Part shown: piece after piece, positions 9,169 through 45,996 of the stretch
How positions within the stretch are numbered: the stretch's first letter is position 1
Layout: the number at the start of each line of letters is the position of its first letter
Assembly (NCBI GenBank): GCA_963833425.1
Contig: CAWHXP010000010.1
Span: 1-64,000 of the forward strand
Reading direction: 5' to 3'
Origin: an uncultured Methanosarcinaceae archaeon
Lineage (GTDB): Archaea; Halobacteriota; Methanosarcinia; Methanosarcinales; Methanosarcinaceae
DNA length: 64,000 nucleotides
Translations under genes and position numbers: made by a program
The notes under the pieces: model-generated
The model's database searches: none
What the model was told of the DNA's origin: nothing
The model's input: the letters and a program-made list of their open reading frames with translations, nothing else

Positions 9169-9199
9169 ATGTATATATTTTGTGCTAAAATCTCTGAAT
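9169..9199. repeat. Family A dyad site
   Basis: atgtatatatttt-gtgct-aaaatctctgaat. Confidence 0.7.
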
Positions 9200-9686
9200 T
9201 TCCTAAGTTCCATCTGAAATAGAAATCACTGTTGATCTATTACTCATGGAACTTATGGAGCTCATGGAACATCTGAAAATAATGTAACTAAACCCCAATC
9301 AAAAATTATAAAATAAGATAAATAATAATTAGATAGTAGTCAAAACTAGAAATATGAATAAACTAAATCAGAGACTAATTCCATACTCAGTAAATACCAA
9401 AAAAGAATTGTAAAATACAGAAATATATTTAGTATATTTTGATACCAATTAGGTATATAATTAATTAATTAATCTATTAAGTCTGATTGGTTTGTCAGAA
9501 ATTGGATAATGTATTTGAAATAGTGTGATAAAATATAAAAGCCGGCGCCAGCACTGTACTATTACCTGCCATAACACTGTTACTGGCGCTACTTTTACCA
9601 TTGCTGTGGATTACATTAACTGTTGTAGATGCCAAAGAAGCTACAACGAAAGCCACTTACATAAGGTCTGTTTTAAAGTTTCATTT

Positions 9687-9717
9687 ATGTATAGTTTTTG
9701 TGTGTAAATCTCTGCAT
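9687..9717. repeat. Family A dyad site
   Basis: atgtatagttttt-gtgtg-taaatctctgcat. Confidence 0.85.
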
Positions 9718-9804
9718 ATCTCTCACTTTTCGCAGATGCACACAAAAATGCTACCTATTTTTTTCAATAGTCCTATTCTCACTGTTTAGAATTGGAAGTG
9801 CGGC

Positions 9805-11139
9805 CTATATCCTTATGATAACTTTGGAAAGAGTCGCCATGAAAATTCCAAGAATTAACCAACCAAGAGCCCCTTCAAGTGCGACCAATTTCTTGAAACT
9901 ATCTCTAGGATACCAGTTATCATGGCTCATAAAAGTAAAACAGCCGAAGCTATAGTAAATTATATCCGTTAAGTATATCTTTTGATCCTGATCACGATCC
10001 CTTACAATACCAGGGTTCTTCAAAGCAAAAGGTAGTATTTTATTACTTTTTATATCCCAATATACATTTGCTGTTAAGCTTTTCAAACATATGGGATTTA
10101 CATATATACCCGAAAATAAAAATATAACCGCAATACCAAAAAAAATAGTATATAATGGTTTTACCCCGAAACCACAGGTGAGCCAAGAAAGAAAATCCCA
10201 CCAAAATTCAGAATCATTCCATTTTTCCTTTCTCAGTTTACTTTGTCGGTAGTTATAATATACGACATCTGCATCTGCGTATCGCCCCCGATCATTATAA
10301 TATTTATAGAATTTTTGAAAATTCTTCCCATCCAAAATAAGTTTTTCAGATGTTTCCGGCCCTATGAACTCGGCAGCATCATTAAATTTCGCCAAAGTGA
10401 AGTCGGCAGAATTATTAAAAATCGCCCAACTAAAGTCGGAAGAATTATTAAAAGTCGCCCCTGAGAAGGAGACTGAATTTTTAAAAAATACATTTGACAA
10501 ATTAAAAATGTCTTTAAAATTTTAGTTTGTTATTATGATATCGCTTTTAACAACACTTAAATGTTTTTTTAATCCAAGGGAAATAAGTAATTCTTTTGTG
10601 TTTCCGCGTCCCAAATATTTATTAAAATATGGACTGGGAACAGTTTCAAGTTTTATATTACTTATGTTTAATTTCCCAACTATGCTGCAGTTCACAAGAT
10701 TTATGTCGTCACCATCAGCTATATGTTTTAAGATATCTTCTGCGTGAACTACTGTAGACACTAATAAGATAAACTGGTCATCCATCCATAGTTTTTTAAA
10801 GTCGGGATCTTTCTTTGCTTCTTCTTTACACAATGAGTTAAGCTCTATGACTCTTTTTAAGTTAAATATTACTTGTTCTTTGTTATCAATATGAGAATAC
10901 AAACATGCACGATTGTACCAAGCATCTGAATGGTTTGGGTTAATTTCAATTGCTTTGTCATATGCCTTTAGTGCTTCGTCATGCTTATCTGATTCATCTA
11001 AAGCATTGCCTTTATGGATCCAAGTATTTGGATCCTTTGGATCAACTTCGGTGTATCCAGTTACCTGAACTACTGTAGACAGCACAGAAAATACCAGAGT
11101 TAGTAATAGGATATAAGAACCTAAAACTCCAGCTGTCAT
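9805..11139 (-). pseudogene. TPR + pentapeptide-repeat + channel-like membrane protein with one nonsense codon
   Basis: ORFs 10522-11139 and 9805-10500 are in the same frame, split by TAA at 10522-10524; TPR YDKAIEINP, ADFxxAxF repeats, WLTCGFG and hydrophobic C-terminus. Confidence 0.8.
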
Positions 11140-11183
11140 TTCTACACCAAGGTACTCTATATGTAAGCATAATTATTTATTTT

Positions 11184-11978
11184 TTGATGTCATCAATAAT
11201 TTTGCTCATTGATGACTCGGAGACATTAATTATGTTATTCCCACATTTTTTTGAGTCACTTAGTAGTGATAATCTAAAAATCCTAGATGGTACTTTTACT
11301 ATTGCAATAGTCACAGGAATACTTTATTATTTTGGTTATCTTTTGGAATTAAAAAATGTGGATAGATATGGAAAAAGACGACTATTTAAAGGATTTTTTT
11401 TTGTATTAACATTTGTTACTACTCCATGTATTGGATTTCATATTTTCATGAGAGTCACGTGTTTTGATTTTATTTAAACTCCCCATGATTCTAATCAACT
11501 TGTATATTGGTTTATTCAATATATATTGGTGATTATGCTATATATTTATGAATTTGGACAATTATCTCCAGAAGCAAAGAGAATTAAGGAGACAATTACA
11601 GCAAAAACTGATAAGGAAGTAACTGGTCATTTTACTTATATAAAAAAGAAACCAATAAAACATTTATTTACAATATTTTTACTATTCCTATTTTCGATGT
11701 TCACGATTTTTGTAAGTCTCTTCTATCTATTTGATTTAGAGTTAATGTCAATGACATTTTTAGTACTTTCTGTTATTGCTTTTGTGCTTCCTTTATATCT
11801 TAATGACTATGCAAAAGTTACCGTTTATTTGTCTGCAGAGAACAAGTCTCAGATTAACGGTTATTTGGTAATGAAAAGTGATGATGGTGTTAAAATTTAC
11901 AATGATGAGAATAACACATTTATTGACTTAAAAAATAATAATATAATACTAATTGAGTCACAAATCGATGATGTATAA
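11184..11978 (+). pseudogene. Hypothetical membrane protein, probably split by a frameshift
   Basis: Two consecutive hydrophobic ORFs, 11184-11477 and 11526-11978. Confidence 0.45.
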
Positions 11979-12146
11979 AATACAATTTTTCTCGCTTAGA
12001 AATGAAATAAATCAAGTAGTCTACCTTGCTTATAGAGAGAACTAACTAGCTAGTTAAGTTTGAGTAACTTTCTCATAGGATGTAGGGACAGCTTTGAGTA
12101 GAATTGCAGGATCAATTATGTAAATTGCATTCTCTACCATCTTAGA

Positions 12147-12177
12147 ATACATAGTTTTTGTGCCAAAATCTCTGAAT
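12147..12177. repeat. Family A dyad site
   Basis: atacatagttttt-gtgcc-aaaatctctgaat. Confidence 0.85.
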
Positions 12178-12728
12178 TTCCTAAGTTCTACCTGAAATAA
12201 AAAAAATATCGCTGATCTAATTACTCATGGAGCTTATGTGACTCATAGAACATCTAGAGCTCATGGAACACTTGGAACTAATTAACCCAAACACCCACCA
12301 TAAATAGAAAATAAGAAATAATAATTATATAAATTTGGCATTGTACCAAAAGTTCTGTAAAGTGTGGTTGATTCTATATCTTTTTCTTCCCAATGACAAA
12401 AATAGGGATTCTCAGTTTGTTAGCAAAATGAGTTAAGCAGTTACGGAAAAAAGCTTAAGCGCATCGGGTTGATTATCTCACTAACTACACAAACAATTTA
12501 TTATTATTGTTAATTTCATGTTGATAGATGTATTCTCCATGCATAATTTAAAAGGGTTGGTCACCTAATTTTCCAGGGCAATAATGATATTCCTTAAGGT
12601 AATCTCTATTGCTCTATTTCTTTTTTGAGTCTTTAGCTCAGTGATATTACTCCCATTTCAATATTTGATAATAAGTTTTTTAAAAAATTAAGAATTATAA
12701 CTCTTACAAAAAGGATTAATTTTCAGGA

Positions 12729-13286
12729 GTGAGTAATCTGGAAAAATACCAAAAATTCGTTGAGATGGCTGTCAAGCTGGGCGCCCACGATGCTAAGATT
12801 ATTAAGACAGATAGTATAGTCACAGCGGCGTGGACCAGATGGAAGTGCAGGTATGGATGTCCGGAGTATAACAAAAGCCTTTGCTGTCCGCCTAATTCAC
12901 CTACACATCAAGAGACTCGGGAACTGGTAGATTGCTATGAATACGCGCTTTTAGTACATTTTTCGCCAAATATTGACAAAGCGACGGAAGACCTGCTAAA
13001 TAGGATAAAGGTCATCACAAGGGACAGCACAACGGTCATCAACACGCTTGAGAGAGATATCTTCCTTGCTGGGTACTATAAGGCTTTTGCACTAAGCGGT
13101 GGTCACTGTCAGCTTTGCCCTGAATGCACGCTGAAGGATTGCAGGAATCCAAAGATTGCCAGACCATCGATGGAAAGTTGCGGTATAGACGTTTACAGCA
13201 CGGTGAAGAATAACGGCTATCCTATCGAAGTATTGACGGATGTATCCGATATGATGAACATCTTTTGCCTTGTACTGATCGAATAA
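12729..13286 (+). CDS. DUF2284 predicted metal-binding protein
   Basis: CRYGC, CCPP, GGHCQLCPEC, ARPSMESCGIDV; AGGA immediately before the GTG start. Confidence 0.88.
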   Translation: MSNLEKYQKFVEMAVKLGAHDAKIIKTDSIVTAAWTRWKCRYGCPEYNKSLCCPPNSPTHQETRELVDCYEYALLVHFSPNIDKATEDLLNRIKVITRDSTTVINTLERDIFLAGYYKAFALSGGHCQLCPECTLKDCRNPKIARPSMESCGIDVYSTVKNNGYPIEVLTDVSDMMNIFCLVLIE

Positions 13287-13402
13287 CCGAGATATCCTGT
13301 ATAATTTTTTCATCTTGGCTTTTTTTCATTAAAATAATATATTTCAGCTCTGTAGAATCCCTTTAAATTTGCCACAAATAACATAATTTCTTGTTTTTAG
13401 TG

Positions 13403-13433
13403 ATGCACAGTTTTTGATATAAAACTTATGCAA
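13403..13433. repeat. Family A dyad site
   Basis: atgcacagttttt-gatat-aaaacttatgcaa. Confidence 0.85.
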
Positions 13434-13927
13434 TAATCAAAGATAAAGTTTCTACAGCCTTTGAATTACGAAAATTTATTCTATTCTTTAATAAGTTGAG
13501 AATACATTTCCTTAATTTCCCATTTGAAGATAAAATGTCGCTGAGTGATTAACTCCAAAAATTATGGAACTTAAAAGTTGCCTACTTACAGGCAACTACT
13601 TAACTCTATGGCAGGATACCGACAGTGCAGTAAGGATAGCTTTGTATCTTTCATTCAAATATCTTCTTTTACTGTTTTTTTTCATAAATTGAAAGTTTTG
13701 CATACGAACCCCTATTTGTAATTGTTTATAATCATAATTTATTTTCAGTTCGAATAGATTAATATAGCATGTTGTTTTTCTATTGCTTGTTAGATTACTA
13801 AAATTCTATAGATTTTAGATCAGTATTTTATAGTTTTATAATATTGATTTAAAACTCGTGGTTTTTAGAATCTGACTTTATGAAAAAACGTAAGAAATAA
13901 TTAAATTAAACTAGAAGTGAGAAATTA

Positions 13928-14878: not shown

Positions 14879-15054
14879 ATATCTTGACAAACCAGGAATT
14901 TTGGTGATAAGAGTAATCAGAGTGAAAGACTCAAATTAATTTTTTGCCAGAAAAATTTTATTCTGAAGCGTATAAAAATTCTGTAAAATATAACCGGAGA
15001 TTAATCGATGGTTATAACAAAGCTTTTTTCTTATTTTTTTTCAATGTCCCATTG

Positions 15055-15085
15055 ATGCACAGTTTTTGTGATAGAACATATGTAT
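15055..15085. repeat. Family A dyad site
   Basis: atgcacagttttt-gtgat-agaacatatgtat. Confidence 0.85.
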
Positions 15086-15235
15086 TGCCTTGGATATTAC
15101 CAGCAATTATGATTAGTTCGTCATCTATAAATTTACATGCTTATTTTGAACTTTTTGCAACGAAACCTTTTGTTCAATATCCTAGCTGATAGCCAAGATA
15201 ATTATTTATCCGATATACACACTTGTGTATTTGGT

Positions 15236-15764: not shown

Positions 15765-15788
15765 ACTACTTATTACAAATATTCATCT

Positions 15789-15819
15789 ATGCATATGTTT
15801 TGCTATAAAACCAATCCAC
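15789..15819. repeat. Family A dyad site
   Basis: atgcatatgtttt-gctat-aaaaccaatccac. Confidence 0.7.
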
Positions 15820-15962
15820 AGGTAAAAACGACAAATCATATTTTTATGAGAAAGATAAAAAGTGCCAGGAGCCAAAAAAAACGGTGGAGATCATGATAAA
15901 TTTCGAAAAGACTGTTATCAAGAGGCCTTCCAGGCACTTAAAAACAGGAGTGCTTCTAATTT

Positions 15963-16325: not shown

Positions 16326-16592
16326 GGTTTTCTCTCCAAATATTTATCTTTTTCCATTGCTACTCTACTGTATCTGCTAATTTATACTCTTAATAAAATC
16401 TCACATAACCGAATTATCACGTTTTTATAGATAATATGACTTAGCATTATATAAGAATCAAGTACAATAAGCTTTATAGTTTAAGTGGGGTATTATATCT
16501 TCAAACTTTAATAAGTTTAATTTTTCGTTTCAACTGCAAAAGTCCTATTTGACCGTTGACAAGAATCGAATCTAAATAAGTATAAGCATAAA

Positions 16593-16742
16593 GGCTCCGT
16601 TGCAAAAAATTTGGCTTTCTTGCAAAATCATTAAAAATCATCACAATTCTGAAATTTAATTATTTTAATTCGAGCGAAAATGATACCTAAAGGTGAAAAT
16701 TGTAGCGTCAAATTGCAGAAATAATATTTTTGCAACGGAATC
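16593..16742 (+). mobile_element. IS6-related MITE (150 bp)
   Basis: Ends ggctccgttgcaaaa and ttttgcaacggaatc. Confidence 0.8.
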
Positions 16743-16947
16743 CTGTGATCAACTTGAATTCCTCTTTCTATCATCATTTTCTTTAAATTTCTATAGCTCA
16801 ATGGGTATTTTAAGTACCATCTTACATTCAATAGGATAATTTCTCCTTCATAATGCTTCCATTTAAAGGAATTAAATAGCATATTACTATCTTTGGTTTC
16901 CGTTTTATTCTATTGTATCATTAAAAAGGATTTTTTGCAACGGGACC
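16743..16947 (-). pseudogene. IS6 remnant (one end plus transposase N-terminus)
   Basis: Near-identical to ~38184-38388 (FKWKH..GEIILLNVRWYL.YPLSYRNL); cut by the adjacent MITE. Confidence 0.9.
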
Positions 16948-18509: not shown

Positions 18510-18540
18510 ATGCAGAGATTTTGTAATAAAAGCTATGTAT
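18510..18540. repeat. Family A dyad site
   Basis: atgcagagatttt-gtaat-aaaagctatgtat. Confidence 0.88.
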
Positions 18541-19272: not shown

Positions 19273-19578
19273 TCAGCTATTCATGGGTATATTACTGCTA
19301 GCTCCGGTTTTCATAGGCATATTTTTGTTAGTTTCTATTTTCATAGGCATTTTTTTACCATTTCTGCCATTCATAGTTGAGTTTTTGTGATGGTGTTTAA
19401 AGAACTTGCCATGGTGGTGATGCTTGAAGATTTTAGTCTTCACATCTTTCATGATTACAATGGCTGTTTTCTTATCCTTAACCACGACGGGTCCTGCGCT
19501 TACTGCTGCAGCTGTCACGGACATTAAAAAACAAACTGCTAGCAAAATACCAAGTGTCTTTTTCATTTGTTTAAGCAT
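19273..19578 (-). CDS. Small secreted His/Lys-rich leader-family peptide
   Basis: Signal ending AVSA; KHHHHGKFFKHHH; paralog of 26031-26330. Confidence 0.75.
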   Translation of the reverse strand: MLKQMKKTLGILLAVCFLMSVTAAAVSAGPVVVKDKKTAIVIMKDVKTKIFKHHHHGKFFKHHHKNSTMNGRNGKKMPMKIETNKNMPMKTGASSNIPMNS

Positions 19579-20315
19579 CTTTTTATCTCCTATTTTAGTT
19601 ATTTTTAAGAAAATTATTCACCAATCTACTTTTCATTGGCAGGTGTAATAAAGAACCAGAGTTCGATATGTATCTCTAAAATTGTTTTAATCATAATGAC
19701 ACTTGCCTATGGGTAGACATACATACCATATTATGATTAGTCTATAAGCTTACTTGCTGAAAGCTTTCTTATTCATAAAAATATTTTCCAGATAAAATAA
19801 TTAATATTATGCTTTAAAAATTAAATTAAAACTTCTAGACCTGTGATAATTCTTCTTAAAAGTAATATAGAGTGAATTTTGCACAATACCAAGAAGAATA
19901 TCGCCTATTTATAATACTAAGGCGGAAATCCCGGCAATATCATTTTCGTAATGGGCATGATATTCGTCATCATCACTACCATGACAACTACTACAATGAT
20001 GTGTACTATCCTGACTAAGAAGGGGCACATAACCCTGTTATTCTCGCGTAGACTGGACCTACGTACCCGTAGTGGAATAACAACCTGTCGTAATACAACA
20101 TATACTAGAACAATTATAACCCATTACAACCCAACCCACTACAGGAAAAATACTGAACGCATCAAACAGATCCCCTGAAATAGCTGATGGATTCTACTTT
20201 ACTCATATAGAAAACTAACAAGTTCAGCTTGAATGACTTTTTCACATGATGCATAGCCAGGTTGAGTATAATTGCAGAATCAATGACTTTGATTGCATTC
20301 TCTCCCATCTCACAT

Positions 20316-20346
20316 CTGAATAGTTTTCGTGTCTAAACCTAAGCAT
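20316..20346. repeat. Family A dyad site (degenerate)
   Basis: ctgaatagttttc-gtgtc-taaacctaagcat; its left flank is homologous to the left flank of site 12147. Confidence 0.65.
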
Positions 20347-21187: not shown

Positions 21188-21219
21188 ATACATAGTTTAT
21201 TGCTATAAAATCTATGCAT
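21188..21219. repeat. Family A dyad site (contains the SGNH gene stop codon)
   Basis: atacatagtttat-tgctat-aaaatctatgcat. Confidence 0.85.
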
Positions 21220-23013: not shown

Positions 23014-23044
23014 ATGCACAGTTTTTTTATGAAAACTTCTGAAT
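23014..23044. repeat. Family A dyad site
   Basis: atgcacagttttt-ttatg-aaaacttctgaat. Confidence 0.82.
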
Positions 23045-23904: not shown

Positions 23905-23935
23905 ATACATAGTTTTTGTGCGAAAAACTGTGCAT
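23905..23935. repeat. Family A dyad site
   Basis: atacatagttttt-gtgcg-aaaaactgtgcat. Confidence 0.9.
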
Positions 23936-26330: not shown

Positions 26331-26825
26331 AAGTTCAAAAAGCTATCATTCTAATACCATTGCTTAAAAATTAATCAAAAGTCTCTAAAGTGTTTTTGGT
26401 GGTATTCGGTGATATCTATAAGAAGACTTACAAAGCATATCTGCTTATGTCACCATGGATACCACAATAAACAACTTTTTGGGATGAATATTACTATTCC
26501 ACTGCTAACTAGATATTAAAACATAGAATGTAGGGCAAAACATATTATGAAGTTTGATTCTATTAAAAATTAAAAAAGAATAACAAAAAGAGATAAACAT
26601 GTTTTTGAATATTGACTTACCTTTTCGGGGATTATTGGTAAAGAAGAAATTTTAAATTTTTATATTTATCATAAAGTTCTTTTGTGCATTGTTTTATATT
26701 CTAACGCAATTGTCTTATTTCTGTTCCTAAAGACATGATCTTTTTTTATCATGAAAATTTAGTTCTGTATCAACTAACTAGGATGAAATTACCATATTTG
26801 AAAGATATTTTCTGTGACTGTATAC

Positions 26826-26948
26826 CTAAATTTTGCAAAATCTTTCCTTTTTTTGCATTTCTAGTGCTTTTCGTTTTTTCATAAGTTCTTTTAATGTTGG
26901 TGGGACTACGCACATACTCTCAAGTTTTTTATTATCCGCAATGTACAT
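26826..26948 (-). CDS. Conserved 40-aa basic small protein, copy 1
   Basis: MYIADNKKLESMCVVPPTLKELMKKRKALEMQKKERFCKI; frame intact in the second copy at 39223-39345. Confidence 0.5.
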   Translation of the reverse strand: MYIADNKKLESMCVVPPTLKELMKKRKALEMQKKERFCKI

Positions 26949-27289
26949 TGGTCTTTTTTATATATACATATATATATTATTGTTATTTATATGTGCCTAT
27001 TTTCTCTGCGTTTTATCACTACAAAAAAATAGGACTTATAGTTTTGTTGATATGGAAATTTTCATACAAAGCATGTGCATCCTAGGGTTAAAATAATTCA
27101 AATATTTGGACCAAAATAGAAACCAGTATTAAGATTAACAGTCTCAATATTCATAAGTATAAATGAAAACTAGATAACAGGAAACAAGTAGATAAATTAA
27201 TTCCAAGTGCTCTATAGGCTCTATAAGTCCCAGAAGCTCCATTAGCAATAAATCAATACCTTTTTCTTATTTCTTATGGAACTTAGGGA

Positions 27290-27320
27290 CTGAAGAGATT
27301 TTAGCACAAAAAATGTGTAT
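27290..27320. repeat. Family A dyad site
   Basis: ctgaagagatttt-agcac-aaaaaatgtgtat. Confidence 0.75.
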
Positions 27321-29218: not shown

Positions 29219-29249
29219 ATACATAGGTTTTATAGCAAAACATCTGCAT
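29219..29249. repeat. Family A dyad site
   Basis: atacataggtttt-atagc-aaaacatctgcat. Confidence 0.88.
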
Positions 29250-30594: not shown

Positions 30595-30625
30595 ATACAC
30601 AGGTTTAATATTATAATCTATGTAT
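30595..30625. repeat. Family A dyad site
   Basis: atacacaggttta-atatt-ataatctatgtat. Confidence 0.8.
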
Positions 30626-30851
30626 TGTATATCATCTCGATAAATAAATAGACCTCTTACATATATAGTAAGCTCAAAACATGTGATCATCTATTTTTTT
30701 TAATATAAAACCACGCGCTGCATTTGCTCAATATTTCATAGTACTTTTGAGTTGTATAATTTATTTATTTCTTGATTTCACGATTTTTGTAACAACATTG
30801 ATTTCTATTAAATGAAATATATTTTATAAAATTGGACGAATTGGTTAATAT

Positions 30852-31337
30852 ATGGAAAATTTGCTAATGGAGCTAAAAGGTCACAATGGTCAGCTCGAAC
30901 TTTACAAAGATAAAGTTATTATCAAACGGAAGGGCTTTTTCGCAAAATTATATTTTGGATTCGTTAAAGGAGACAAAACAATTTATTTGAACCGGATTTC
31001 CGGAATAAAACTGAAAGAATGTGGACTTTGGATGGGGTATATACAGTTCATACTTCCAGGAAATATCGAAATTACACGTGAATCTATTAATGGGATACAA
31101 AATGACGAAAACACCGTTACATTTGGATTATGTCCTTTCAATCGTGGTAAATACAACAATCTTGCCAACCAAATAAAATTGGAAATCGAAAACAGAATTT
31201 TAAATTATTCTCAACAAGTAATAAATTCTAATTCAAATGGGCCGGATACAATAAGGAAATATAAACAATTATGTGATGATGGCATAATTACCAAGGAAGA
31301 ATATGAAGCAAAGAAAAAAGAAATATTAGGCCTTTAA
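30852..31337 (+). CDS. DUF4429-like domain protein with C-terminal SHOCT
   Basis: KGHNGQLEL, GYIQF, DENTVTF; SHOCT LCDDGIITKEEYEAKKKEIL. Confidence 0.8.
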   Translation: MENLLMELKGHNGQLELYKDKVIIKRKGFFAKLYFGFVKGDKTIYLNRISGIKLKECGLWMGYIQFILPGNIEITRESINGIQNDENTVTFGLCPFNRGKYNNLANQIKLEIENRILNYSQQVINSNSNGPDTIRKYKQLCDDGIITKEEYEAKKKEILGL

Positions 31338-31374
31338 GGTTATGTGAATTCTTAGTCTGCTGATTAGTTTAAGA

Positions 31375-31407
31375 AGTACTGTTGATTATTCACATACCAA
31401 CAGTATT
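31375..31407. repeat. 33-bp dyad, family B
   Basis: agtactgttga-ttattcacata-ccaacagtatt. Confidence 0.75.
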
Positions 31408-31502
31408 TATTTTACTTAAAAAATTTTATTTATTTGTTCTACAAAATATTAATTATTCTTTTACTTTAGAAATATTTTTAATACTATCGGTTTTAAAATA
31501 TG

Positions 31503-31533
31503 ATGCATAGGTTTTCACAAAAAAACTGTGTAT
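31503..31533. repeat. Family A dyad site
   Basis: atgcataggtttt-cacaa-aaaaactgtgtat. Confidence 0.88.
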
Positions 31534-34788: not shown

Positions 34789-34820
34789 ATGCATAGATTT
34801 ATATAGCAAAATCTCTGCAT
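34789..34820. repeat. Family A dyad site
   Basis: atgcatagattta-tatagc-aaaatctctgcat. Confidence 0.88.
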
Positions 34821-36618: not shown

Positions 36619-36701
36619 TATTTTTCATCCTAACTTGATCTATTTTTAATACAAAATATCCTTTTATTCATTTTTATTCGTTGGTATAATTGTAGTCGGA
36701 A

Positions 36702-37412
36702 TTACCAAAATTGCCACCAAGGTTTCTTTTCTCCTGGTGCTTCAATAGCCTTCTGATTAATTAACGTTTGAACCTGCAGGAAGTAATTGTTATGCGTTGT
36801 TTTGAGATCTTCCTTATCCCTTTCTGCCTTATCAAGCTCTGCCTTTAAGGTGGTATTATGCCGTTCTAACTCTTCGAATCTGGCTCGCAGCTGGAGAAGT
36901 TCCCCAGGTTCCCGGGCTTCCTGCAGAGAATCTTTAAGTTTAAAGTTTTCGGCCTGTAGTACCTCTATATTCTGTGTATATCCTGTGATATCCTGATTTA
37001 GATCCTTTTTGATCCTTTCTATATCCTTTTTGTATCCTTCTGTATCCTGCTTGTATCCAACTATATCCTTTCGATATCCTAAAAGGTCATCTTTCAATTG
37101 AGTATTTTCAGATTTGAGAGCTTCAATATTCTGTAAACATCCCTCAATATCCTGTTTGTATCCGATTATATCCTTCTGATATCCTAAAAGGTCATCTTTC
37201 AATTGAGTATTTTCAGATTTGAGAGCTTCAATATCCTGCAAATATCTCTCAATATCCTGTTTGTATCCTACGATATTTTTTCCTGGATCCTCTAGGAGTC
37301 TTTGAAGGGCTGTTATTATGGCTTGTGTGGTATGTTCGTACCCTGCAGATCCTATCTTATCATACAAGCTCACAGGTATCCAACAATTTATTTTCCTCTT
37401 ATCCTCGGGCAT
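36702..37412 (-). CDS. Coiled-coil protein with heptad and 35-aa repeats, ending KKPWWQFW
   Basis: GYKQDIE heptads; duplicated IEALKSENTQLKDDLLGY. Confidence 0.8.
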   Translation of the reverse strand: MPEDKRKINCWIPVSLYDKIGSAGYEHTTQAIITALQRLLEDPGKNIVGYKQDIERYLQDIEALKSENTQLKDDLLGYQKDIIGYKQDIEGCLQNIEALKSENTQLKDDLLGYRKDIVGYKQDTEGYKKDIERIKKDLNQDITGYTQNIEVLQAENFKLKDSLQEAREPGELLQLRARFEELERHNTTLKAELDKAERDKEDLKTTHNNYFLQVQTLINQKAIEAPGEKKPWWQFW

Positions 37413-37526
37413 GTATCCATGTTATTTTTTAGTAGGATATAGTTGTATCCTTTTGTATCCGGGATGGAGTGTCAAGTCTCACGGTAACAATCATTAGTAT
37501 GCCATCTTTTATCTCATGTTAAATGG

Positions 37527-38388
37527 GGTTCTGTTGCAAAAAATCATATTAATAAGTAATAATTTAGTTTTACAGCAAAGTACATAAAAACAGAATGTTC
37601 CTCAGAGAACATTCAGATTTAGATAGCTATTCCGAATAACTTGTTTATAAAATTAACTTCATCAAGAACACATCGATTTAGAGTAGCAATCTGTCCTTTT
37701 CTTATCATATGCATTATTTCAATTCCTTTTAAAGTCTTGATGGCTGTACAAAAAGACCGAAAGCCTAACATTGGGCGAATTATCCGCTTTATAAATCTAT
37801 GATCCTGTTCAACAACATTATTCAAATACTTGATTTGCTGAAGATTTATGTTTTTAGGTAATATTTTATCATTTTTGAGTTCATTTACCGCAGGTGGATA
37901 AGCTGGATTTTTATCAACAGCTATTACCTTTGGAATTTGATTATGGTTAGAACTCAAAGCTTTCTTAAGGAATCTCTTTGCAGCTTTTCTATCACGTTTT
38001 TCACTTAGCATAAAATCAACTGTGTTTCCAGTTGAATCAACTGCAAGATACAGATATTTCCATTCTCCTTTTACCTTGACGTAAGTTTCGTCCACTCTCC
38101 AAGAATCATTAGTTGGCCTTAAATACCTACGCACCTTCTTTTCGATCTCAGGAAAATATTGATGCACCCATTTCATTATAGTACTGTGATCAACTTGAAT
38201 TCCTCTTTCTATCATCATTTCCTTTAAATTTCTATAGCTCAATGGATATCTTAAGTACCATCTGACATTCAATAAGATAATCTCACCTACAAAGTGCTTC
38301 CATTTAAAGGAATTAGATAACATATTACTACTTTTGATTTCCTTTTTGTTTTATGATATCCTTAAAAAATATTTTTTGCAACGGAACC
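37527..38388 (-). mobile_element. IS6-family insertion sequence (862 bp)
   Basis: TIRs ggttctgttgcaaaa and ttttgcaacggaacc around an intact transposase; no flanking duplication. Confidence 0.95.
37619..38323 (-). CDS. IS6-family DDE transposase
   Basis: WRVDETYVKVKG, VDKNPAY, YLNNVVEQDHR; 234 aa. Confidence 0.96.
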   Translation of the reverse strand: MLSNSFKWKHFVGEIILLNVRWYLRYPLSYRNLKEMMIERGIQVDHSTIMKWVHQYFPEIEKKVRRYLRPTNDSWRVDETYVKVKGEWKYLYLAVDSTGNTVDFMLSEKRDRKAAKRFLKKALSSNHNQIPKVIAVDKNPAYPPAVNELKNDKILPKNINLQQIKYLNNVVEQDHRFIKRIIRPMLGFRSFCTAIKTLKGIEIMHMIRKGQIATLNRCVLDEVNFINKLFGIAI

Positions 38389-38476
38389 ATCCTTTTACTT
38401 CATTTATAAATACTATACGCATTATAGTGATAATTATGTCCAAGACCATATAATCAGATAACAAAGAAGGTGATAA

Positions 38477-38704
38477 ATGATGAAAGTAAAAGAATTTCTT
38501 GTTATCTTAGAACAAGATGAAGATGGAACTTATATTGCTTCAGTACCTGATCTTCCGGGATGTCATACTCAAGGAGATACAATTGAAGAAGTGAAAGATA
38601 ACATCAAAGAGGCAATTGAACTTTATCTTGAAGTTAAACCAGAAATGATAGACTGTGAGCCTGTAAATTTTATTGGAGTAGAGAAAGTTAAAGTTGAGGT
38701 TTAA
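38477..38704 (+). CDS. hicB: HicB-family antitoxin
   Basis: VPDLPGCHTQGDTIEE..NIKEAIELYL. Confidence 0.9.
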   Translation: MMKVKEFLVILEQDEDGTYIASVPDLPGCHTQGDTIEEVKDNIKEAIELYLEVKPEMIDCEPVNFIGVEKVKVEV

Positions 38705-38715
38705 TAAGTAGAATA

Positions 38716-38946
38716 GTGCCTCTTCCTGCTAAAAAAATTATTAAAGCGCTTGAAAAGGTAGGTTTTCAATCTATTCGGCAAAAAGGCAGTCATTTATTCT
38801 TAGAACACCCCGACGGAAGAACGACAGTATTACCTATACATTCAAGTAAGGATCTAAAAGTTAACTTAATAAACAAAATTTTAAAAGATGCTGAAATTTC
38901 AAGAGACGAATGGATAGAATTAATTCAAACTTTGATTGTTTTTTAG
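38716..38946 (+). CDS. hicA: HicA-family toxin
   Basis: GF..IRQKGSH...HPDGRTTVLPIH. Confidence 0.9.
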   Translation: MPLPAKKIIKALEKVGFQSIRQKGSHLFLEHPDGRTTVLPIHSSKDLKVNLINKILKDAEISRDEWIELIQTLIVF

Positions 38947-38961
38947 AGTGTTGATATAAAC

Positions 38962-39129
38962 GGTTCCGTTGCAAAAAATCTGGCTATTTTACAAAAACAA
39001 TGAAAATATCACAAATGGGATACTTATATACTATAAACAGATCGATAATTATACAAAAAGCAATAATTATAATCTAAAAAGGCAGTAAAGTTATTTTTGC
39101 AACAGAACCAGATTTTTTGCAACAGAACC
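38962..39129 (+). mobile_element. IS6-related MITE (148 bp) plus a second tandem end
   Basis: ggttccgttgcaaaa to ttttgcaacagaacc (ends 39109), then agattttttgcaacagaacc. Confidence 0.85.
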
Positions 39130-39222
39130 CATAATCTATTTCCTTTTCACGAACATTTAGTTCTCTACCAACTAACTAGGATGAAATTACCATATTTGAA
39201 AATATTTTCCGTGGCAGTATAC

Positions 39223-39345
39223 CTAAAGTTTGAAAAATCGTTCCTTTTGTTGCATTTCGAGTGCTTTTTGTTTTTTCACTAGTTCTTTTAATGTTGGTGG
39301 GACTATAAACCTACTCTCAGGTTTTTTATTATCCGCAATATACAT
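39223..39345 (-). CDS. Conserved 40-aa basic small protein, copy 2
   Basis: MYIADNKKPESRFIVPPTLKELVKKQKALEMQQKERFFKL. Confidence 0.5.
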   Translation of the reverse strand: MYIADNKKPESRFIVPPTLKELVKKQKALEMQQKERFFKL

Positions 39346-39627
39346 GGGCTTTTTTTATATGTTTATAATTATTTGTATATGCCTATTTTATCTGCTTTTT
39401 GTCACTACAAAAAATAGGACTTATAGTTTTGCTGATATGGAAAGTTTCATACAATGCATGTGCATCTTAGGGTTAAGATAATTAAAATATTTGGACCAAA
39501 ATTGATAACAGGAAACAAGTAGGTTAATTAGTTCCAGATGTTACATGAGCTCCATATGTTCTAGGAGTCTCATAAGCTCCATGAGAAATAAATTCATATA
39601 TTTTTTATTTTTTGTGGAACTTCGGAA

Positions 39628-39658
39628 ATGAAGAGATTTTTACGCAAAAACTATGCAT
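39628..39658. repeat. Family A dyad site
   Basis: atgaagagatttt-tacgc-aaaaactatgcat. Confidence 0.88.
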
Positions 39659-39665
39659 CTATAAG

Positions 39666-40198
39666 TTAGAATTTGTTTTGTCCAGATCTTTTTATTAACC
39701 AATGTAAAGTCAAAATAGCTATTATCCCTATCCCGAATACTTCAGGAATAGAAGAGAGCGAGAAATTTAGTGTAAATGAATTTTCTACCAGTCTTATTAA
39801 ATATTCCATTCCAGTGGAATCCACATGATCTCTGGGGAAATTCAATCCGAAAAAAGGCCAGAATAAAGTTTTAGGAGTTGCCCACATTTGATCTTCCATA
39901 AGATGGAAGAAAGAGCCTGTGGTAAGAGAAATAATCCTGATATCTCCTTTTTTTTGTACAAGTATAAACCTATCAGGAAGAGAATAAGAGAGAAAAATAG
40001 AGTATGACCTATAATGCGTCCGTTTTCGAAGGTAGAAGCAAAGATAACTCTTCCTAGAGGTTTGTCTATCAGATCAGGTAAAAGGGCTCCAATAGCCAGG
40101 TACTTTGAATCTATAGTAGTTCTTAGTCGAGGTATAAAAATTCCAAGTCCGAAAAATACTCCCAACGTGACGCCAATATGTCCAAAAATAAGCATCAA
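39666..40198 (-). pseudogene. Membrane metal-dependent hydrolase (YdjM-like), frameshifted
   Basis: FGHIG, GALLPDLIDKP, GRIIGHTL; frame changes near the homopolymer at ~39950 and continues EDQMW...LFWP. Confidence 0.8.
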
Positions 40199-40335
40199 AA
40201 TTAAAAGGTACTTTAGTTATATATAAATATTGTTTGTTTATTACAGAACCTCACCAAAGTAGCAACTTTTTGTGATAAAACTTTGCCATTTCCCAGGTTC
40301 TGGCAATTTTTTGCAATGGAACCGGCGTGATATTT

Positions 40336-40803
40336 TCAGGAGCTTTGTTGCCTCCAACAATTATCAACAAAATTCAATATATCTCGGGACATATCAAAAT
40401 AATCACGTAATGGGATAGTAGATACCAGCTCTAAGAACGAGGGTGCTTCGCTATCATCAGTTCTGACAACTAAAACTTTCTTATCTTTAGCCATTGCATA
40501 TCCAATGCTGTATATTACACTATCATCATTTTCCTTCATGAAAGCAATAAGAATATCACATATTTTTATAGTATCAAGAAGAGCAATTCGGTTATCATAT
40601 TCTATTCCCACATAGTTGGTGTCATATATTTGTACTTTAGGATATATCTGTAATTTATGTAATGCACTTATGTTATTGTCTTTTTTTTCAAAATCGTTGG
40701 CATCATATATTTGTATTCCATGTGATTCTAGTTCGTCTTTTAGTGACTGTATATAATCGCTTTCTTTCCCATTAAAAGCATAGGACAAAAAAACCGTCTT
40801 CAT
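40336..40803 (-). CDS. TIR / nucleoside-deoxyribosyltransferase-like domain protein
   Basis: VFLSY, CDILIAF, YSIGYAMAKDKKVLVV. Confidence 0.6.
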   Translation of the reverse strand: MKTVFLSYAFNGKESDYIQSLKDELESHGIQIYDANDFEKKDNNISALHKLQIYPKVQIYDTNYVGIEYDNRIALLDTIKICDILIAFMKENDDSVIYSIGYAMAKDKKVLVVRTDDSEAPSFLELVSTIPLRDYFDMSRDILNFVDNCWRQQSS

Positions 40804-41081
40804 TTTTAAAATCCATCCAAATAAATTTTCTTCTGTTAATATATAATAATATAGCTTTTATATAAACATATTGCGTTTTATTTTGACTGTTCTAAAATAA
40901 ACACATGATTTAGTCTCCTCTGCTTGCATATACCTGGAACCTTATTTATTAATGATCCGTGGGTTATTATCAAAAATAGAAGAATCAAAAAACACATAAG
41001 TAATGTGGAATACTGAGCGAATGCAGTCAATATTTCACAATATTTAAGAAGCAGTGGTCAATGCTAAAGTGCAACTTTTTA

Positions 41082-41112
41082 ATACACAGTTTTTGCTATA
41101 AAATCTCTGCAT
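41082..41112. repeat. Family A dyad site
   Basis: atacacagttttt-gctat-aaaatctctgcat. Confidence 0.9.
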
Positions 41113-41425
41113 TAGTAAAAAAAGATACGATTCTATTTTTTTGTGGCAGTCCACTATTTTTGTATTAACTAGGAATCTAATCAATTAAAACTTGTATATT
41201 ACTCTCTTAGGTTGTGGAATCATTTATTTCTCGGAAAAATAGATAAAAATCAAGATATATTATCAAATTTCAAGCAGAAACATATCTCATTTAGTCGTGT
41301 CAATGGCAGCTAGTTAGTTTTATATCATTTGATTGATGCTATCTCCAATAATAATCTGAATGCCATTTCTTAGTTTGTAATAAATTAATAGAGAAATAAA
41401 TATGCCTTCGAATGGAGAAAATAAA

Positions 41426-42127
41426 ATGAAACTTTTACTGATTGCTGACATTCACGCAAATTATGAAGCTCTCCAAACTGTTCTTGAAGTCCCTCACGAT
41501 AGTGCTATCTGCCTTGGAGATATCGTGGACTACGGACCGGATCCTGACAAATGTATTGATCTCTTGCGAGAAAAAGCAATCCCAACAATAAGGGGAAACC
41601 ATGATAATGCTGTTGCTTTTGGGGTAGACTGTCAATGTGGATACAAGTATAAGCATCTATCAATTGCGACCAGGGAATACACATGGAAAATTCTTAACAA
41701 ATCTAGAATAGAATATTTGCAAAAACTCCCTCTCCTGATTGAAGAGCTAATCGATGGTAAAAGGTTTTATCTGACCCATGGAAGTCCGAGGTCTATGTTT
41801 GAATATATTAAACCAGACACTCCGGATGAAGTAATTAGGGATATGGTAGATGAAGCAATGGAGACTATGGATGCAGATTTCCTGGTAATTGGACATTCAC
41901 ATATTCCTATGGATAAAAAGCTAGGAAATCTTACAATTATAAACCCTGGTTCAGTAGGACAACCAAGAGACGGAAATCCCAGGGCAAGTTGCGTATTGTT
42001 TGATACAGAATACGACAAAGCCGAATTTCTTAGACTTGATTACGATATCGATGCTGTCTGCACAAAAATTAAAGACAGAATGCCTCATGCAGATGAACTG
42101 ATAGATATCCTCAGGCGTGGATATTAA
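41426..42127 (+). CDS. Metallophosphoesterase (YfcE/MJ0936-like)
   Basis: DIHAN, GDIVDYG, GNHD, THGS, GHSH, NPGSVGQPRDG. Confidence 0.93.
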   Translation: MKLLLIADIHANYEALQTVLEVPHDSAICLGDIVDYGPDPDKCIDLLREKAIPTIRGNHDNAVAFGVDCQCGYKYKHLSIATREYTWKILNKSRIEYLQKLPLLIEELIDGKRFYLTHGSPRSMFEYIKPDTPDEVIRDMVDEAMETMDADFLVIGHSHIPMDKKLGNLTIINPGSVGQPRDGNPRASCVLFDTEYDKAEFLRLDYDIDAVCTKIKDRMPHADELIDILRRGY

Positions 42128-42159
42128 TAGTAAATAAATAGGTGTTAACTTCTTTTAGT

Positions 42160-42318
42160 TCATCGCAATTCCATCGGCGCTCCGCAGCATTGTACATCGC
42201 CATTACAGCATACGTCTGTAGAGCAGCAATTCTCTTCGCATGCATTTGCTACTTCAAGTTCAAACCCGCAGACTTCACAAAAAAGACGCTGACCTTGCAT
42301 TAGCTCACTGCAATTCAT
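42160..42318 (-). CDS. Small Cys-rich metal-binding protein (desulforedoxin-like pattern), 52 aa
   Basis: MNCSELMQGQRLFCEVCGFELEVANACEENCCSTDVCCNGDVQCCGAPMELR; GAGGTGA RBS. Confidence 0.75.
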   Translation of the reverse strand: MNCSELMQGQRLFCEVCGFELEVANACEENCCSTDVCCNGDVQCCGAPMELR

Positions 42319-42430
42319 TTTATATCACCTCAGAGTGTTTTATATAAAAATAGAGAATTTGTATTTAAATATTTTTCGAAACAATAATTCTTTGTTGCCT
42401 AAGTTATCTCATAATGATCCCTACGTACTT

Positions 42431-43042
42431 TCAGTCCAAACGTGCAATTCTTACAAGAAACTGAATCGGAACATTATAAATTGTATCTGCACCTTTTTTG
42501 TCGACCAGCGCAACTACAACTCTTGGTTTTGCATCCATTTCTCTAAGCTGCTCAATCACTTCTATAATAGTTGAACCGGTGGTAATCACATCATCTACAA
42601 TAACGCAGTTTTTACCGGCAACGGATCCAAAATTTCTGCTTATGGTCCCGCTATGACATAGCTTGACGATATCATGACCTTTACAATGATAAATCGCTAA
42701 ATCTGCACCCAGTTCATATGCCACCATGCTTGCCAGGGGAATACCATTGGCAGCAACACCAACAACAACGTCGACTTCAGTATTTATTTTTTCCAAGGTC
42801 TCAAGCACTATGTCGCAGAGCACAAGTGAGATGTTGTGGAGACGTTTAGCACTTTTTCCTATATTGCTCCAGTTTACGGAAATATCTTTCGGAGCTAGGG
42901 ATAATACTTCTTTTTTTGAACGGTTTAAAAGCCAAGTAACAGTTTCTCTTGAAACGTTGAATTCATCTGCGATCTGACCGGTAATAAGCCCGTTACTCTG
43001 CAGTTCTACAGCTTTCTGAATTAAATCTTCTATATCCTTCAT
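42431..43042 (-). CDS. PyrE-like phosphoribosyltransferase with N-terminal HTH (GfcR-like)
   Basis: [36 protein letters not shown] loop. Confidence 0.88.
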
Positions 43043-43575
43043 GCGTACATACCCACCTGAAAATTTTATCTGGCTTTATTTCCGGGGCTTCCAAATTAAT
43101 GACAGTATTATAATATCAAGCGTTATATCGCTTTCTTCTCCTAAGATTGAATTTTTTTCTTTAGCATTTGCTACTGCTGCTGTTACTGATAATAAAAAAC
43201 AGTTCTGGTGTAAAAAATAATATTTACGTAATTTGATACTATAATTCTTACCTTTGTTTACTAATTTTCCAGGAAATGAGATTGATTAACTTCCTAATTG
43301 TGAATGCCTATATTGATTTTGTAACAAAGCCAGATTTTTACATTACAATCCCAAATGAAGTTAATTCCCACAGAAAAAAGGTTAGAAGCTACCCCAGAGA
43401 AATGCAGTAGTTTTCTAAAAGTACTTTATTCTGCCTGTAATCGTCTAAAGTATACCGTTAACTGTAACGTTTAATTCGCTTGATTCTGAACCTCAAGTGC
43501 ATAGATCCTAAGTTTGGATAGCTTAAAGTATCAAGTTATTGTCTTCTACTTCAACAGAATAAATCTTATGAAGAG

Positions 43576-44835
43576 ATGAAAGATTTAATGAAGACCACAC
43601 AGATTGATTATGCCCGTGATGGGATACTTACTCATGAAATGAAACAAATCATGGAAAACGAAAATATTGATGAAGATATACTGCTTTCGAGAGTAGCTGA
43701 AGGAAGCCTAGTTATAATGACAAGGAAAAGTTACTCTCCCATAGCCATAGGTAAAGGCAGCAGCACTAAGGTAAATGTTAATCTTGGTACGTCTGCTGCA
43801 AAAATTGATCCTGACGCTGAGATAGAAAAGGTCAAGGTTGCAGAGAAGTATGGAGCAGATACAATCACTGATCTTTCCATGGGTGGAGATATTAAGTCAA
43901 TCCGTGCAAGTATATTAAAAAATTGTAATCTACCTATTACCACGGTGCCAATTTATCAGGCCATTGTGGAGTGTGGTATGAAAGATATCACTGAAGATGA
44001 TCTTTTATCGTATCTAAGGGCTCACGTAGATGAAGGTATGAGTTCTGTGGTGCTGCATTGTGTGGATAAGAAGACACTAGACAAATTGAAGGGAGTGGGT
44101 AGGATAATGGGTATGGTTTCTAAGGGTGGTTCTCTTACAAGTGTTTATATGCTAACAAATGGTTGTGAAAATCCATTCATAAAGAACTTTGAAGAGATTA
44201 TCGAGATACTTAGAAAAAAGGATGTTGTTCTTTCCCTAGGAAATACTATGCGAAGTGGATGCGTTCATGATTTTAGGGACAGTGCCCAGATGATGGAAAT
44301 TGAGACAAATGTCAGGCTTGCAAATAGAGTTAACGAAGAAGGTGTTCAGGTCATAATAGAAGGCATGGGTGGGCATATACAGGCAGCGGATATTCCTACT
44401 CAAGTTGAGCTGTATAAATCAAGATCAAGTTTCCCTCTCTTCGTTGCAGGTCCCCTGCCCACAGACATCGCCCTTGGATATGATCATATCGCAGGAGCAA
44501 TAGGAGCTAGTATTGCAAGCGGTGCAGGGGCAGATTATTTGTGTTATATTACACCTGCAGAGCATCTTTCTCTGCCGAGTTCTCAGCAAGTAAGAGAAGG
44601 TTTAATTGCTTTTAAGATAGCTGCCCATATAGGTGATTCTGTGAAGTATGGAGTTAATTGCAGGGATCTGCTGCTTGCAAAGAAACGTGCACAACTTGAC
44701 TGGAAAGGTCAAATAGATCTTGCACTTGATCCTGACAAACCTAAGGAGATGTGTCCCACAATTGGTCCCTGTTCTATGTGTGGTGAATATTGTGCCATAA
44801 AAATTATGGGAGATTATAGTCAACGTACTGGATAA
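43576..44835 (+). CDS. thiC: ThiC-family protein (phosphomethylpyrimidine synthase, or BzaA/B-like paralog)
   Basis: TKVNVNLGTS, GADTITDLS, TVPIYQA, GYDHI, YITPAEHL, CSMCGEYC. Confidence 0.88.
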   Translation: MKDLMKTTQIDYARDGILTHEMKQIMENENIDEDILLSRVAEGSLVIMTRKSYSPIAIGKGSSTKVNVNLGTSAAKIDPDAEIEKVKVAEKYGADTITDLSMGGDIKSIRASILKNCNLPITTVPIYQAIVECGMKDITEDDLLSYLRAHVDEGMSSVVLHCVDKKTLDKLKGVGRIMGMVSKGGSLTSVYMLTNGCENPFIKNFEEIIEILRKKDVVLSLGNTMRSGCVHDFRDSAQMMEIETNVRLANRVNEEGVQVIIEGMGGHIQAADIPTQVELYKSRSSFPLFVAGPLPTDIALGYDHIAGAIGASIASGAGADYLCYITPAEHLSLPSSQQVREGLIAFKIAAHIGDSVKYGVNCRDLLLAKKRAQLDWKGQIDLALDPDKPKEMCPTIGPCSMCGEYCAIKIMGDYSQRTG

Positions 44836-44899
44836 GAGCCTATTCAAAACTAGAAAAATGAATTAACTAATCAGATATGAATTGCATGCTCAGTAAATA

Positions 44900-45187
44900 C
44901 TAAAAAAGAATTATGGGATACAGAAATGTATTTAGTATATTTTGGTACCATTTAACTATATAATTGATTAACTCGTTTATGAAGTCTGGTTGGTTTGTCA
45001 GAAATGGGATAATGTGTCTGAAATGATATAAATATAAAAAGCCAGCGCCAGGACTTGTATTACCACCTGTCACAAAGTCATTACTGGCGCTACTTTTACC
45101 ATTGTTGTGGATTGCACTAACCTTTATTGCTACCAATGAAGCTGCAATAACAGCCACTAACAAAAGATCTGTTTTAGAGTTTTATTT
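44900..45187 (-). pseudogene. Small secreted-type protein remnant abutting a family A site; second decayed copy at ~9390-9686
   Basis: ORF 44900-45163 lacks a clear start; the block is homologous to ~9390-9717. Confidence 0.45.
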
Positions 45188-45218
45188 ATGCATAGTTTTT
45201 ATGTTAAAATCCATGGAT
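45188..45218. repeat. Family A dyad site
   Basis: atgcatagttttt-atgtt-aaaatccatggat. Confidence 0.85.
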
Positions 45219-45996
45219 TTCCTTGGTTCATCATAATAAAAAAATTGCTGATTTGCTATTCGTGGAGCTCATGGAACTCATAGAACGTATGGGGCTTATG
45301 GAACACTTAGAACTAGTTAATCTAGACCACCATAATAAATAAGAAAATCCCAACAAGTTGTTGATCTGGTTCCTGGGATCAGGATTATTTATATATGATA
45401 TAAATTAGTAAAACTTGCTAAAATATAGAAAATCTTAAAAAAGTATAAATTATATAATGTTTATATTTTAGAGTTTGACGCATAAATCACAACTTTATGA
45501 TATAAAATTATTAGAGTATTTATGTGTCATTAGGAGAGATTGGAATTGAGCTATTTGACACATAGTTTACCAAGCTGCAGGTATCATTACCGTTTTAGTG
45601 TAATATGTGTCTGATAGTGAATAATTATCATATAGGTCTTTGGCTCTTAGTCTATTCAGCTGAATTTTGATCTCTCCTGTTTTATATGGGATCTTCAGAT
45701 AGACTGAATAATCCATCCAAAACAGAAATTAGTTGCTATACACTCAATATAAATTTTTTGATTTACTTCATAACTTTTAAAATTACTAAGTAACTATTTA
45801 AAAGCCAAATAGATTTTTATCCCTAGGCTATGATATTACTATTAGTATCATATACATTTTTGATAATTTTTCTCCTTCTTCACTATTACGAATGCTTTTG
45901 CCAGAAGTCGATATTTAGGGGCTGTGTCAAGAATGTCAGAATATGTTTTCGGATACAAGGTAGCATGGTAAACTGCTGGTTTTTGTGACTTAGGAA

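Follow-up and report, generated by a model that had tools for sequence, protein, structure and literature searches.

In a 64 kb stretch of Methanosarcina-lineage archaeal DNA (the window, meaning here the whole stretch analysed), duplicated blocks start or stop at copies of a 31-bp dyad, giving swapped flanks. The question raised by this locus was what takes place at the dyad. The original prediction was that crossovers had occurred inside it, a footprint that an operator model does not predict. We found that the dyad belongs to a family of intergenic repeats at which homology is one-sided, and that shared ancestry decays across the repeat. Since the flanking blocks were re-paired in different combinations, the dyad probably marks places of genome recombination. 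The window had ~33% GC and was roughly 59% coding by a crude count of open reading frames (ORFs). Its genes include Orc1/Cdc6, TrmB, DUF2117, ThiC, FeoB and CbiM.

One-sided homology at the dyad

Sites are named here by their first position, and related loci by L numbers. The similarities that had been predicted between the flanks were recovered. Positions 9337-9710 and 44841-45211 were 80.9% identical over 377 positions, and the alignment stopped inside sites 9687 and 45188 with nothing homologous beyond. Positions 12003-12171 and 20176-20340 (72.4% over 170) stopped inside sites 12147 and 20316. The right flanks of sites 9169, 12147 and 45188 were homologous (9178-9335 against 12156-12331, 73%; 12147-12312 against 45188-45348, 74.9%), and their left flanks were unrelated, with only chance 8-9-mers in common. 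A fourth block matched 26734-27126 to 39130-39511 (85%) and 27173-27320 to 39504-39658 (74.5%), and stopped at the sites 27290-27320 and 39628-39658. Its site-proximal 150 bp was the right-flank module of the preceding set, which we call R, in inverted orientation (12147-12287 against 39658-39522, 80.9%). The swapped flanks at 45188 and 12147 were real, and block boundaries fell at the dyad far above chance. Beyond R at these two sites, the sequence had no relation to what lies to the right of 9687 and 20316. A plain insertion of R beside a pre-existing site was rejected for 45188 and 12147 because no homology was found past R, and simple insertion beside a site therefore fails to explain the swapped flanks.

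The seven sites of the original prediction grew to a family of about 27 in the window. Self-BLAST of the window gave 60 high-scoring segment pairs (HSPs) with 240 ends, and an end was counted when it lay within 10 bp of one of the 27 sites. This was the case for 34 of the 240 ends, against a mean of 5.1 (max 24) in 2000 random placements and a mean of 9.3 (max 33) when the placements were kept outside ORFs of at least 100 aa. Comparisons between genomes used a set of 156 sites from the window and non-redundant loci; L009, L031, L033, L066 and L028 were left out as overlapping other loci or the window. BLAST homology abutting the site was found in 136 site pairs. It was confined to one side in 132 of them (left flank only in 59, right only in 73) and was rarely seen on both (4).

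The blocks were arranged as a mosaic. R, a further module P, the flank that 8650 shares with 18510, and the one found to the left of 6920, 23014 and 41082 abutted sites in varied combinations. The block 12147-13424, which consists of a site, R, a conserved non-coding stretch, a DUF2284 gene and a second site, was 86.7% identical in L032/L033 from another species, where the neighbours on both sides differed. An esterase gene was 236 bp from the site in L032/L033, compared with a distance of 5.8 kb in the window. In addition, L032 had an R module past the second site, which the window lacked there. Another block, 30595-31416, had a 92% identical paralogue with a site at its start and end in L040, which comes from the same genome bin as L028. 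The units 12147-13433 and 30595-31533 had a site at both ends, whereas R, P and the X block left of site 9687 have a single site.

The position of exchange was followed at the variable dyad positions (arm positions 3, 6 and 9) by comparing one-sided pairs with random site pairs. Over all pairs, the near arm had an excess identity of +0.36, the spacer one of +0.25 and the far arm one of +0.12; for pairs outside the R family the values were +0.25, +0.20 and +0.07. This fall from near to far arm meant that shared ancestry fades across the 31 bp. In two pairs the switch lay between the left arm and the spacer. The left flanks of L008:3901 and L043:3001 aligned closely and their left arms were near-identical, after which the spacer, right arm and right flank turned R-type. 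Window site 13403 and L032:4273 had left arms identical at 13/13 positions, followed by an R-type spacer and arm. The gradient would fit equally crossovers scattered along the repeat and an exchange of strands at its spacer, and homologous recombination or gene conversion between the repeats would account for it as well as a site-specific crossover. The proposed crossover inside the dyad was borne out in part. The one-sided flanks and the decay of ancestry supported it, but the exchange point was not sharp, and no recombinase was found among the 35 window ORFs of at least 120 aa.

Structure, position and range of the dyad

The site consists of two inverted 13-bp arms around a 5-bp spacer (13-5-13), with the arm consensus ATGCA[T/C/G]AG[N]TTTT and ATGCAYAGnTTTT-N5-AAAAnCTRTGCAT as the consensus of the entire dyad. 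Of 23 arm pairs, 20 had a 5-bp spacer, one a 4-bp spacer and two a 6-bp spacer, and the spacers were very heterogeneous. A position weight matrix (PWM) built from 13 copies gave 39 strand matches in the window at the threshold of 14 bits, against 0.1 in shuffles, corresponding to 23 sites in 64 kb. When the half-site scan was merged in, about 27 sites were obtained, one per ~2.4 kb, whereas shuffles gave fewer than 1. Arm matches numbered 74, of which 46 were paired (shuffles gave 20.5), and in the window solo arms were no commoner than approximately the chance rate. The spread was very uneven, with 26 copies between 3.4 and 49.4 kb and a single weak dyad in the last 14 kb (50000-64000), where the FeoAB, DUF2117 and CbiM genes lie. 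A second dyad, partial and inverted, was seen at ~9731-9757, 14 bp past site 9687, and the two make up a longer, imperfect palindrome. An orientation run by expectation-maximisation for intrinsic dyad polarity did no more than sort better from worse arms, and repeated seeds had spoiled its null control.

The sites were extragenic: 89 of 93 lay outside ORFs of at least 100 aa and 4 inside. By map count, a site lay within 250 bp of about 14 of 32 gene 3' ends and of about 5 of 32 gene starts. Sites were present in 34 of 38 convergent, 24 of 50 tandem and 10 of 25 divergent intervals, classes that small unannotated genes could bias. The distance from site to gene start varied from 33 to 1761 bp, which showed no fixed promoter position. 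ORFs of at least 25 aa pointing outward were found on 0.26 of 154 site sides and on 0.27 of 3200 controls. Sites as 5' elements of small ORFs were rejected, as such ORFs were not enriched over random intergenic positions.

Complementarity between arms was 9.55/13 within the same site and 9.54/13 between different sites. There was no co-variation of the arms, since positions 3, 6 and 9 showed no compensation, and RNAalifold did not fold the dyad. A hairpin of RNA or single-stranded DNA was rejected on these grounds. The lack of co-variation disfavoured a hairpin and favoured double-stranded recognition by a dimer. The arms were conserved independently at fixed spacing, as in a transcription-factor operator. 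The sequence pattern suggests that the dyad is probably bound by protein, and we infer that a dimeric protein would contact the arms as double-stranded DNA. An ordinary operator was nevertheless rejected. There was no fixed distance to gene starts, and a classical operator was made unlikely by the copy number (~27 per 64 kb) and the position nearer gene 3' ends. The lack of arm co-variation fits an operator-type dimer site. Protein binding and recombination at the dyad are not mutually exclusive. We would guess that its role is that of a boundary or 3'-end element. The 31-bp site as a mobile unit was also rejected, as all pairs homologous on both flanks, about five of them independent, kept the 31/32-bp gap, i.e., the full site.

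The taxonomic range was surveyed by scanning a single genome of each species for the pattern, which gave at least 119 stretches; 80 loci had full flanks. At least 61 Methanosarcina/Methanosarcinaceae records were among the 118 loci listed, and the listed carriers include sp. T3, Z-7115, Ant1, DH2, M. spelaei and many bins. The remaining listed loci were lone matches in unrelated bacteria, at approximately the chance number estimated for such a pattern. L028, a Methanosarcinaceae genome bin contig, was 99.8% identical to window 36638-42598. A record with a bacterial label, L053 (Smithella sp.), contained a full dyad and an 83% match to window 19416-19596; it may be a mis-binned archaeal contig. 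The repeat was not mentioned in the full-text literature searched, nor in passages from PMC6749651. Positions 12100-12700 had no BLAST match in plasmid or phage collections. In Rfam, no family was found at the gathering or E-value thresholds, and no tRNAs were found either.

Modules, neighbouring genes and feature coordinates

The R module is ~175 bp long and is conserved, with at least 16 copies spread over several genomes. In every copy the site stands at one and the same end. In the window, copies were present at 27125-27289(-) and 39470-39627(-) in addition to those listed separately in Table 1, and further copies were found in L010, L030, L032, L035, L043, L064, L077, L083 and L089. The arm variant of R was constant (ending TGAAT), and the spacer was usually the same. 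Tandem 9-bp repeats in R could be read as a conserved frame of 23-26 aa (MELMGLIEHLELMEHLELI...), which was intact in 10 of 16 copies, had a conserved stop and was preceded at its ATG by a GATC-containing stretch. The entropies of the codon positions were 0.72, 0.49 and 0.73, a weak signal, and there was no Pfam match to the frame. Whether R is a protein-coding gene was equivocal; a small protein, an RNA and a DNA-level repeat are all candidates. A 7-bp pairing of AGTTCCA past the site with the start-codon region was conserved in R and showed no co-variation.

The P module sits between gene 3' ends and sites. The paralogue in L040 has the order gene-site, and the window has gene-P-site. At 31377-31416 and 46113-46152, at the start of P and just past two unrelated genes, there were short hairpins poor in GC (TACTGTTG...CAACAGTA) with T-runs behind them; they look like terminators. 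The copy of the X block at 9390-9686 was frameshifted relative to the 87-aa ORF at 44900..45163, which belongs to no known family. Both copies of the fourth block contained a conserved 40-aa ORF (MYIADNKK...KALEMQ..; 26826-26948(-) and 39223-39345(-)) with substitutions that appeared protein-like and with no Pfam match. A conserved non-coding element of ~240 bp was found at 12395-12640 and 47262-47510, and also at L032:3268-3512 and L017:2025-2262(-). At its end is a strong hairpin with a T-run behind it. The element has two copies near genes for Cdc6 or a Cdc6 fragment and has no Rfam match; it may be a structured RNA.

Several other features lie in the window. An IS6-family (DDE_Tnp_IS240) transposase gene was found at 37619-38323(-), and an end of the IS6 element also occurs as a separate 205-bp fragment (16743-16947, 38184-38388). 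A 150-bp family resembling MITEs (miniature inverted-repeat transposable elements), with copies up to 98% identical, showed no association with dyad sites. IS6-type terminal repeats of the GGTTCTGTTGCAAA form were present at 39097-39130, beside the MITE-like copy at 38956-39110. A 91-aa ORF at 47548-47823(-) encodes only the C-terminal winged helix of Cdc6 and begins 8 bp from site 47831; a complete Orc1/Cdc6 gene is present at 20-1273(-). Sites 47831 and 48863 flank a gene pair of the toxin-antitoxin type at 47986-48719(-), one gene being HepT-like (HEPN) and the other a nucleotidyltransferase (MNT).

Table 1. Dyad sites, flanking modules and the MITE-like family in the window.
Feature	Position	Strand	Basis
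Dyad site 13-5-13	3442..3472	.	PWM scan
Dyad site, 4-bp spacer; left flank common to sites 23014, 41082	6920..6949	.	
Dyad site; 71-bp right flank common to site 18510	8650..8680	.	
Dyad site at head of R module	9169..9199	+	
R module, short decayed copy	9200..9335	+	
X block: frameshifted pseudogene copy of 87-aa ORF 44900..45163	9337..9686	-	
Dyad site, 5' side of X pseudogene	9687..9717	+	
Left-flank block common to 20176-20315; 28-32 aa ORF (MxENAI...) begins at site edge	12003..12146	-	
Dyad site at head of R module	12147..12177	+	
R module	12178..12335	+	
Dyad site; closes block 12147-13424 conserved in L032/L033	13403..13433	.	
Dyad site	15055..15085	.	
Dyad site; one flank common to sites 29219, 48863	15789..15819	.	
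Dyad site, 182 bp past CorA gene	18510..18540	.	
Dyad site, weaker match; left flank common to site 12147	20316..20346	+	
Dyad site, 6-bp spacer; ~170-bp left flank common to L001, L064, L078	21188..21219	.	
Dyad site	23014..23044	.	
Dyad site	23905..23935	.	
Fourth block, copy 1: long R variant reading away from site 27290, and 40-aa ORF	26734..27289	-	
Dyad site at head of inverted R module	27290..27320	-	
Dyad site	29219..29249	.	
Dyad site; left end of duplicated site-gene-site block (L040 paralogue, 92%)	30595..30625	.	
P module, gene 3' end to site 31503; also at 46028-46152 (inverted); absent from L040	31377..31502	+	
Dyad site	31503..31533	.	
Dyad site, 6-bp spacer	34789..34820	.	
Fourth block, copy 2	39130..39627	-	
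Dyad site at head of inverted R module	39628..39658	-	
Dyad site	41082..41112	.	
X' block, intact 87-aa ORF 44900..45163, no Pfam family	44841..45187	-	
Dyad site; joins X' (left) to R' (right)	45188..45218	+	
R module; intact 26-aa frame 45262..45342	45219..45348	+	
Dyad site; P module to its right	45997..46027	.	
Dyad site, 8 bp from start of Cdc6_C-fragment ORF	47831..47861	.	
Dyad site	48863..48893	.	
Dyad site	49399..49429	.	
Weak dyad site, one good arm	60174..60204	.	
MITE-like family	16588-16740, 38956-39110, 48989-49138, 52400-52550, 58435-58584, 63277-63425, 2568-2691, 43213-43339		

Explanations of the re-paired flanks and comparison with known systems

We give an even chance to the explanation that the dyad is an intergenic repeat similar to repetitive extragenic palindromes (REPs) and bacterial interspersed mosaic elements (BIMEs), and that it acts as a hotspot where flanks are re-paired by ectopic recombination or gene-conversion tracts. 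The flanking blocks (R, X, P, the small MxENAI ORF and whole site-gene-site units) would then be separate modules, each inherited with its adjoining arm. New left and right pairings would arise through exchange inside the dyad. The likeliest route would be ectopic homologous recombination, or conversion tracts that begin at the dyad, with donor flank copied over varying lengths. The group to which the host belongs is reportedly polyploid and prone to gene conversion.

Several observations weigh against this explanation. The remaining 206 of the 240 HSP ends lie away from sites, many of them derived from the unrelated 150-bp MITE-like family, the IS6-type element and repeats within genes. The 132 one-sided pairs are not independent events, because the R family contributes 68 of them. 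All flank pairs were 70-92% identical and none near 100% was seen, which blurs the junctions. The far ends of R, P and X have no site, and L008 and L043 differ by rearranged segments whose junctions are off any site; these two results suggested that the dyad is a preferred but not the sole boundary. In the comparison of window site 30595 with L040, the entire site was co-inherited, including an unusual inner left arm. Finally, for homologous recombination a substrate of 31 bp at ~75% mutual identity is short.

It is unlikely that no exchange took place, with the dyad being a conserved binding element (operator, insulator or terminator) beside many small transcription units. Selection would then act on the genes and the dyad alone, beyond which the unconstrained flanks diverged. 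The pairs are old (70-85% identity), the arms act as independent half-sites, orthologous sites were kept whenever both flanks were kept, several small ORFs begin beside a site, and the distal ends of X and R coincide with ORF ends, all of which suits this explanation. However, it fails on sites 45188, 12147 and L043:3001, which combine left and right blocks of different families, on the non-homologous genes past the dyad in orthologous blocks and on the decay of ancestry inside the dyad. The lack of enrichment of outward ORFs and the variable distance to gene starts also speak against it. Unlikely as well is a dedicated site-specific recombinase whose core sites are the dyads, with monomers on the arms, exchange at the spacer and shuffling of gene and regulatory cassettes along the chromosome. 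The only enzyme of this kind was one integrase among the 119 ORFs of related loci, in L002 and 125 bp from a site, approximately the number expected by chance. The spacers were very heterogeneous, the ancestry gradient was smooth without a step, most modules have a site at a single end, and ~27 active sites in 64 kb would endanger genome integrity. On the other side, the 13-5-13 structure with independently conserved arms suits a dimer on double-stranded DNA. Each arm travels with its own flank, the spacer being intermediate, 12147-13433 and 30595-31533 (compared with L040) have a site at both ends, solo half-sites are missing, and the pairs homologous on both flanks all keep the full site.

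We consider it quite improbable that the dyad is a terminus or insertion target of small non-autonomous elements (REP/RAYT-, IS200/IS605- or MITE-like), with R and P as such elements. Single-strand recognition should leave hairpin co-variation, and there was none. No Y1 or other transposase was associated with the sites, and no RAYT/Y1 transposase was found among the 35 + 19 window ORFs and the 119 ORFs of related loci. The modules had no second terminal repeat or target duplication, pairs homologous on both flanks included no empty site, no phage or plasmid collection gave a match, and one dyad can serve two different modules. In favour of this explanation are the at least 16 copies of R in several genomes with the site at the same end, the presence or absence of P and R beside a site (as in L040 and the window) and the occurrence in the window of an IS6-family transposase and a MITE-like family.

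The dyad was compared with known systems. REPs and BIMEs of enterobacteria and pseudomonads are short imperfect intergenic palindromes of high copy number, often located past gene 3' ends or between convergent genes. REPs are known substrates for rearrangements and form mosaics with other short conserved motifs. The dyad is likewise a short imperfect palindrome, intergenic, of high copy number, often near gene 3' ends or in convergent intervals, and in mosaic with other motifs. In contrast, its arms lack compensatory pairing and it showed no stem-loop character, no RAYT/Y1 transposase accompanied it in the ORFs searched, and its consensus spans many species of a genus-level clade instead of being species-specific, in an archaeal host. 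The pdif (XerC/XerD) modules of Acinetobacter plasmids are shuffled by Xer at 11-6-11 sites. As with pdif, two-arm dyads of ~30 bp with a short spacer bound one-gene modules found in varied contexts, and homology stops at the sites. However, the dyad is 13-5-13, chromosomal and far more numerous, most of its modules have a site on one side only, there is no linked Xer-type enzyme, and an alternating orientation is not definable. The dyad can also be read as 12-7-12, compared with the Xer-type arms around a 6-8 bp centre, and no cleavage point was indicated.

An integron comprises an IntI gene and attI, and the attC sites beside them, of 55-140 bp, are recognised in single-stranded form, folded with extrahelical bases. 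In both systems repeats part cassettes, and cassette homology stops at the repeat. The dyad, at 31 bp, without a pairing constraint and without an integrase in the window, did not have the character of an integron repeat, and the genes that flank it lie in both orientations and include housekeeping genes. The operators of dimeric archaeal transcription factors resemble it in the dyad, the independently conserved half-sites and the fixed spacer, but the dyad differs from them in its copy number, its variable distances to gene starts and its greater proximity to gene 3' ends.

As a REP-like element, the dyad would add to archaea a class of which we found none described there. It is doubtful that the dyads are crossover sites of a chromosomal cassette-shuffling system of Methanosarcina-lineage archaea, with a dimeric enzyme cutting or exchanging strands at the spacer. 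If true, such a system would create new pairings of promoters, genes for small proteins, 3' modules and individual genes across the genome, and would match, in archaea and on the scale of a chromosome, what pdif modules or integrons do. Methanosarcina genomes are said to have low gene density and extensive rearrangement. A conserved and very abundant dyad at which flanking modules are re-paired would account for the spread of small genes and regulatory modules, and would supply a concrete sequence basis for the plasticity of Methanosarcina genomes.

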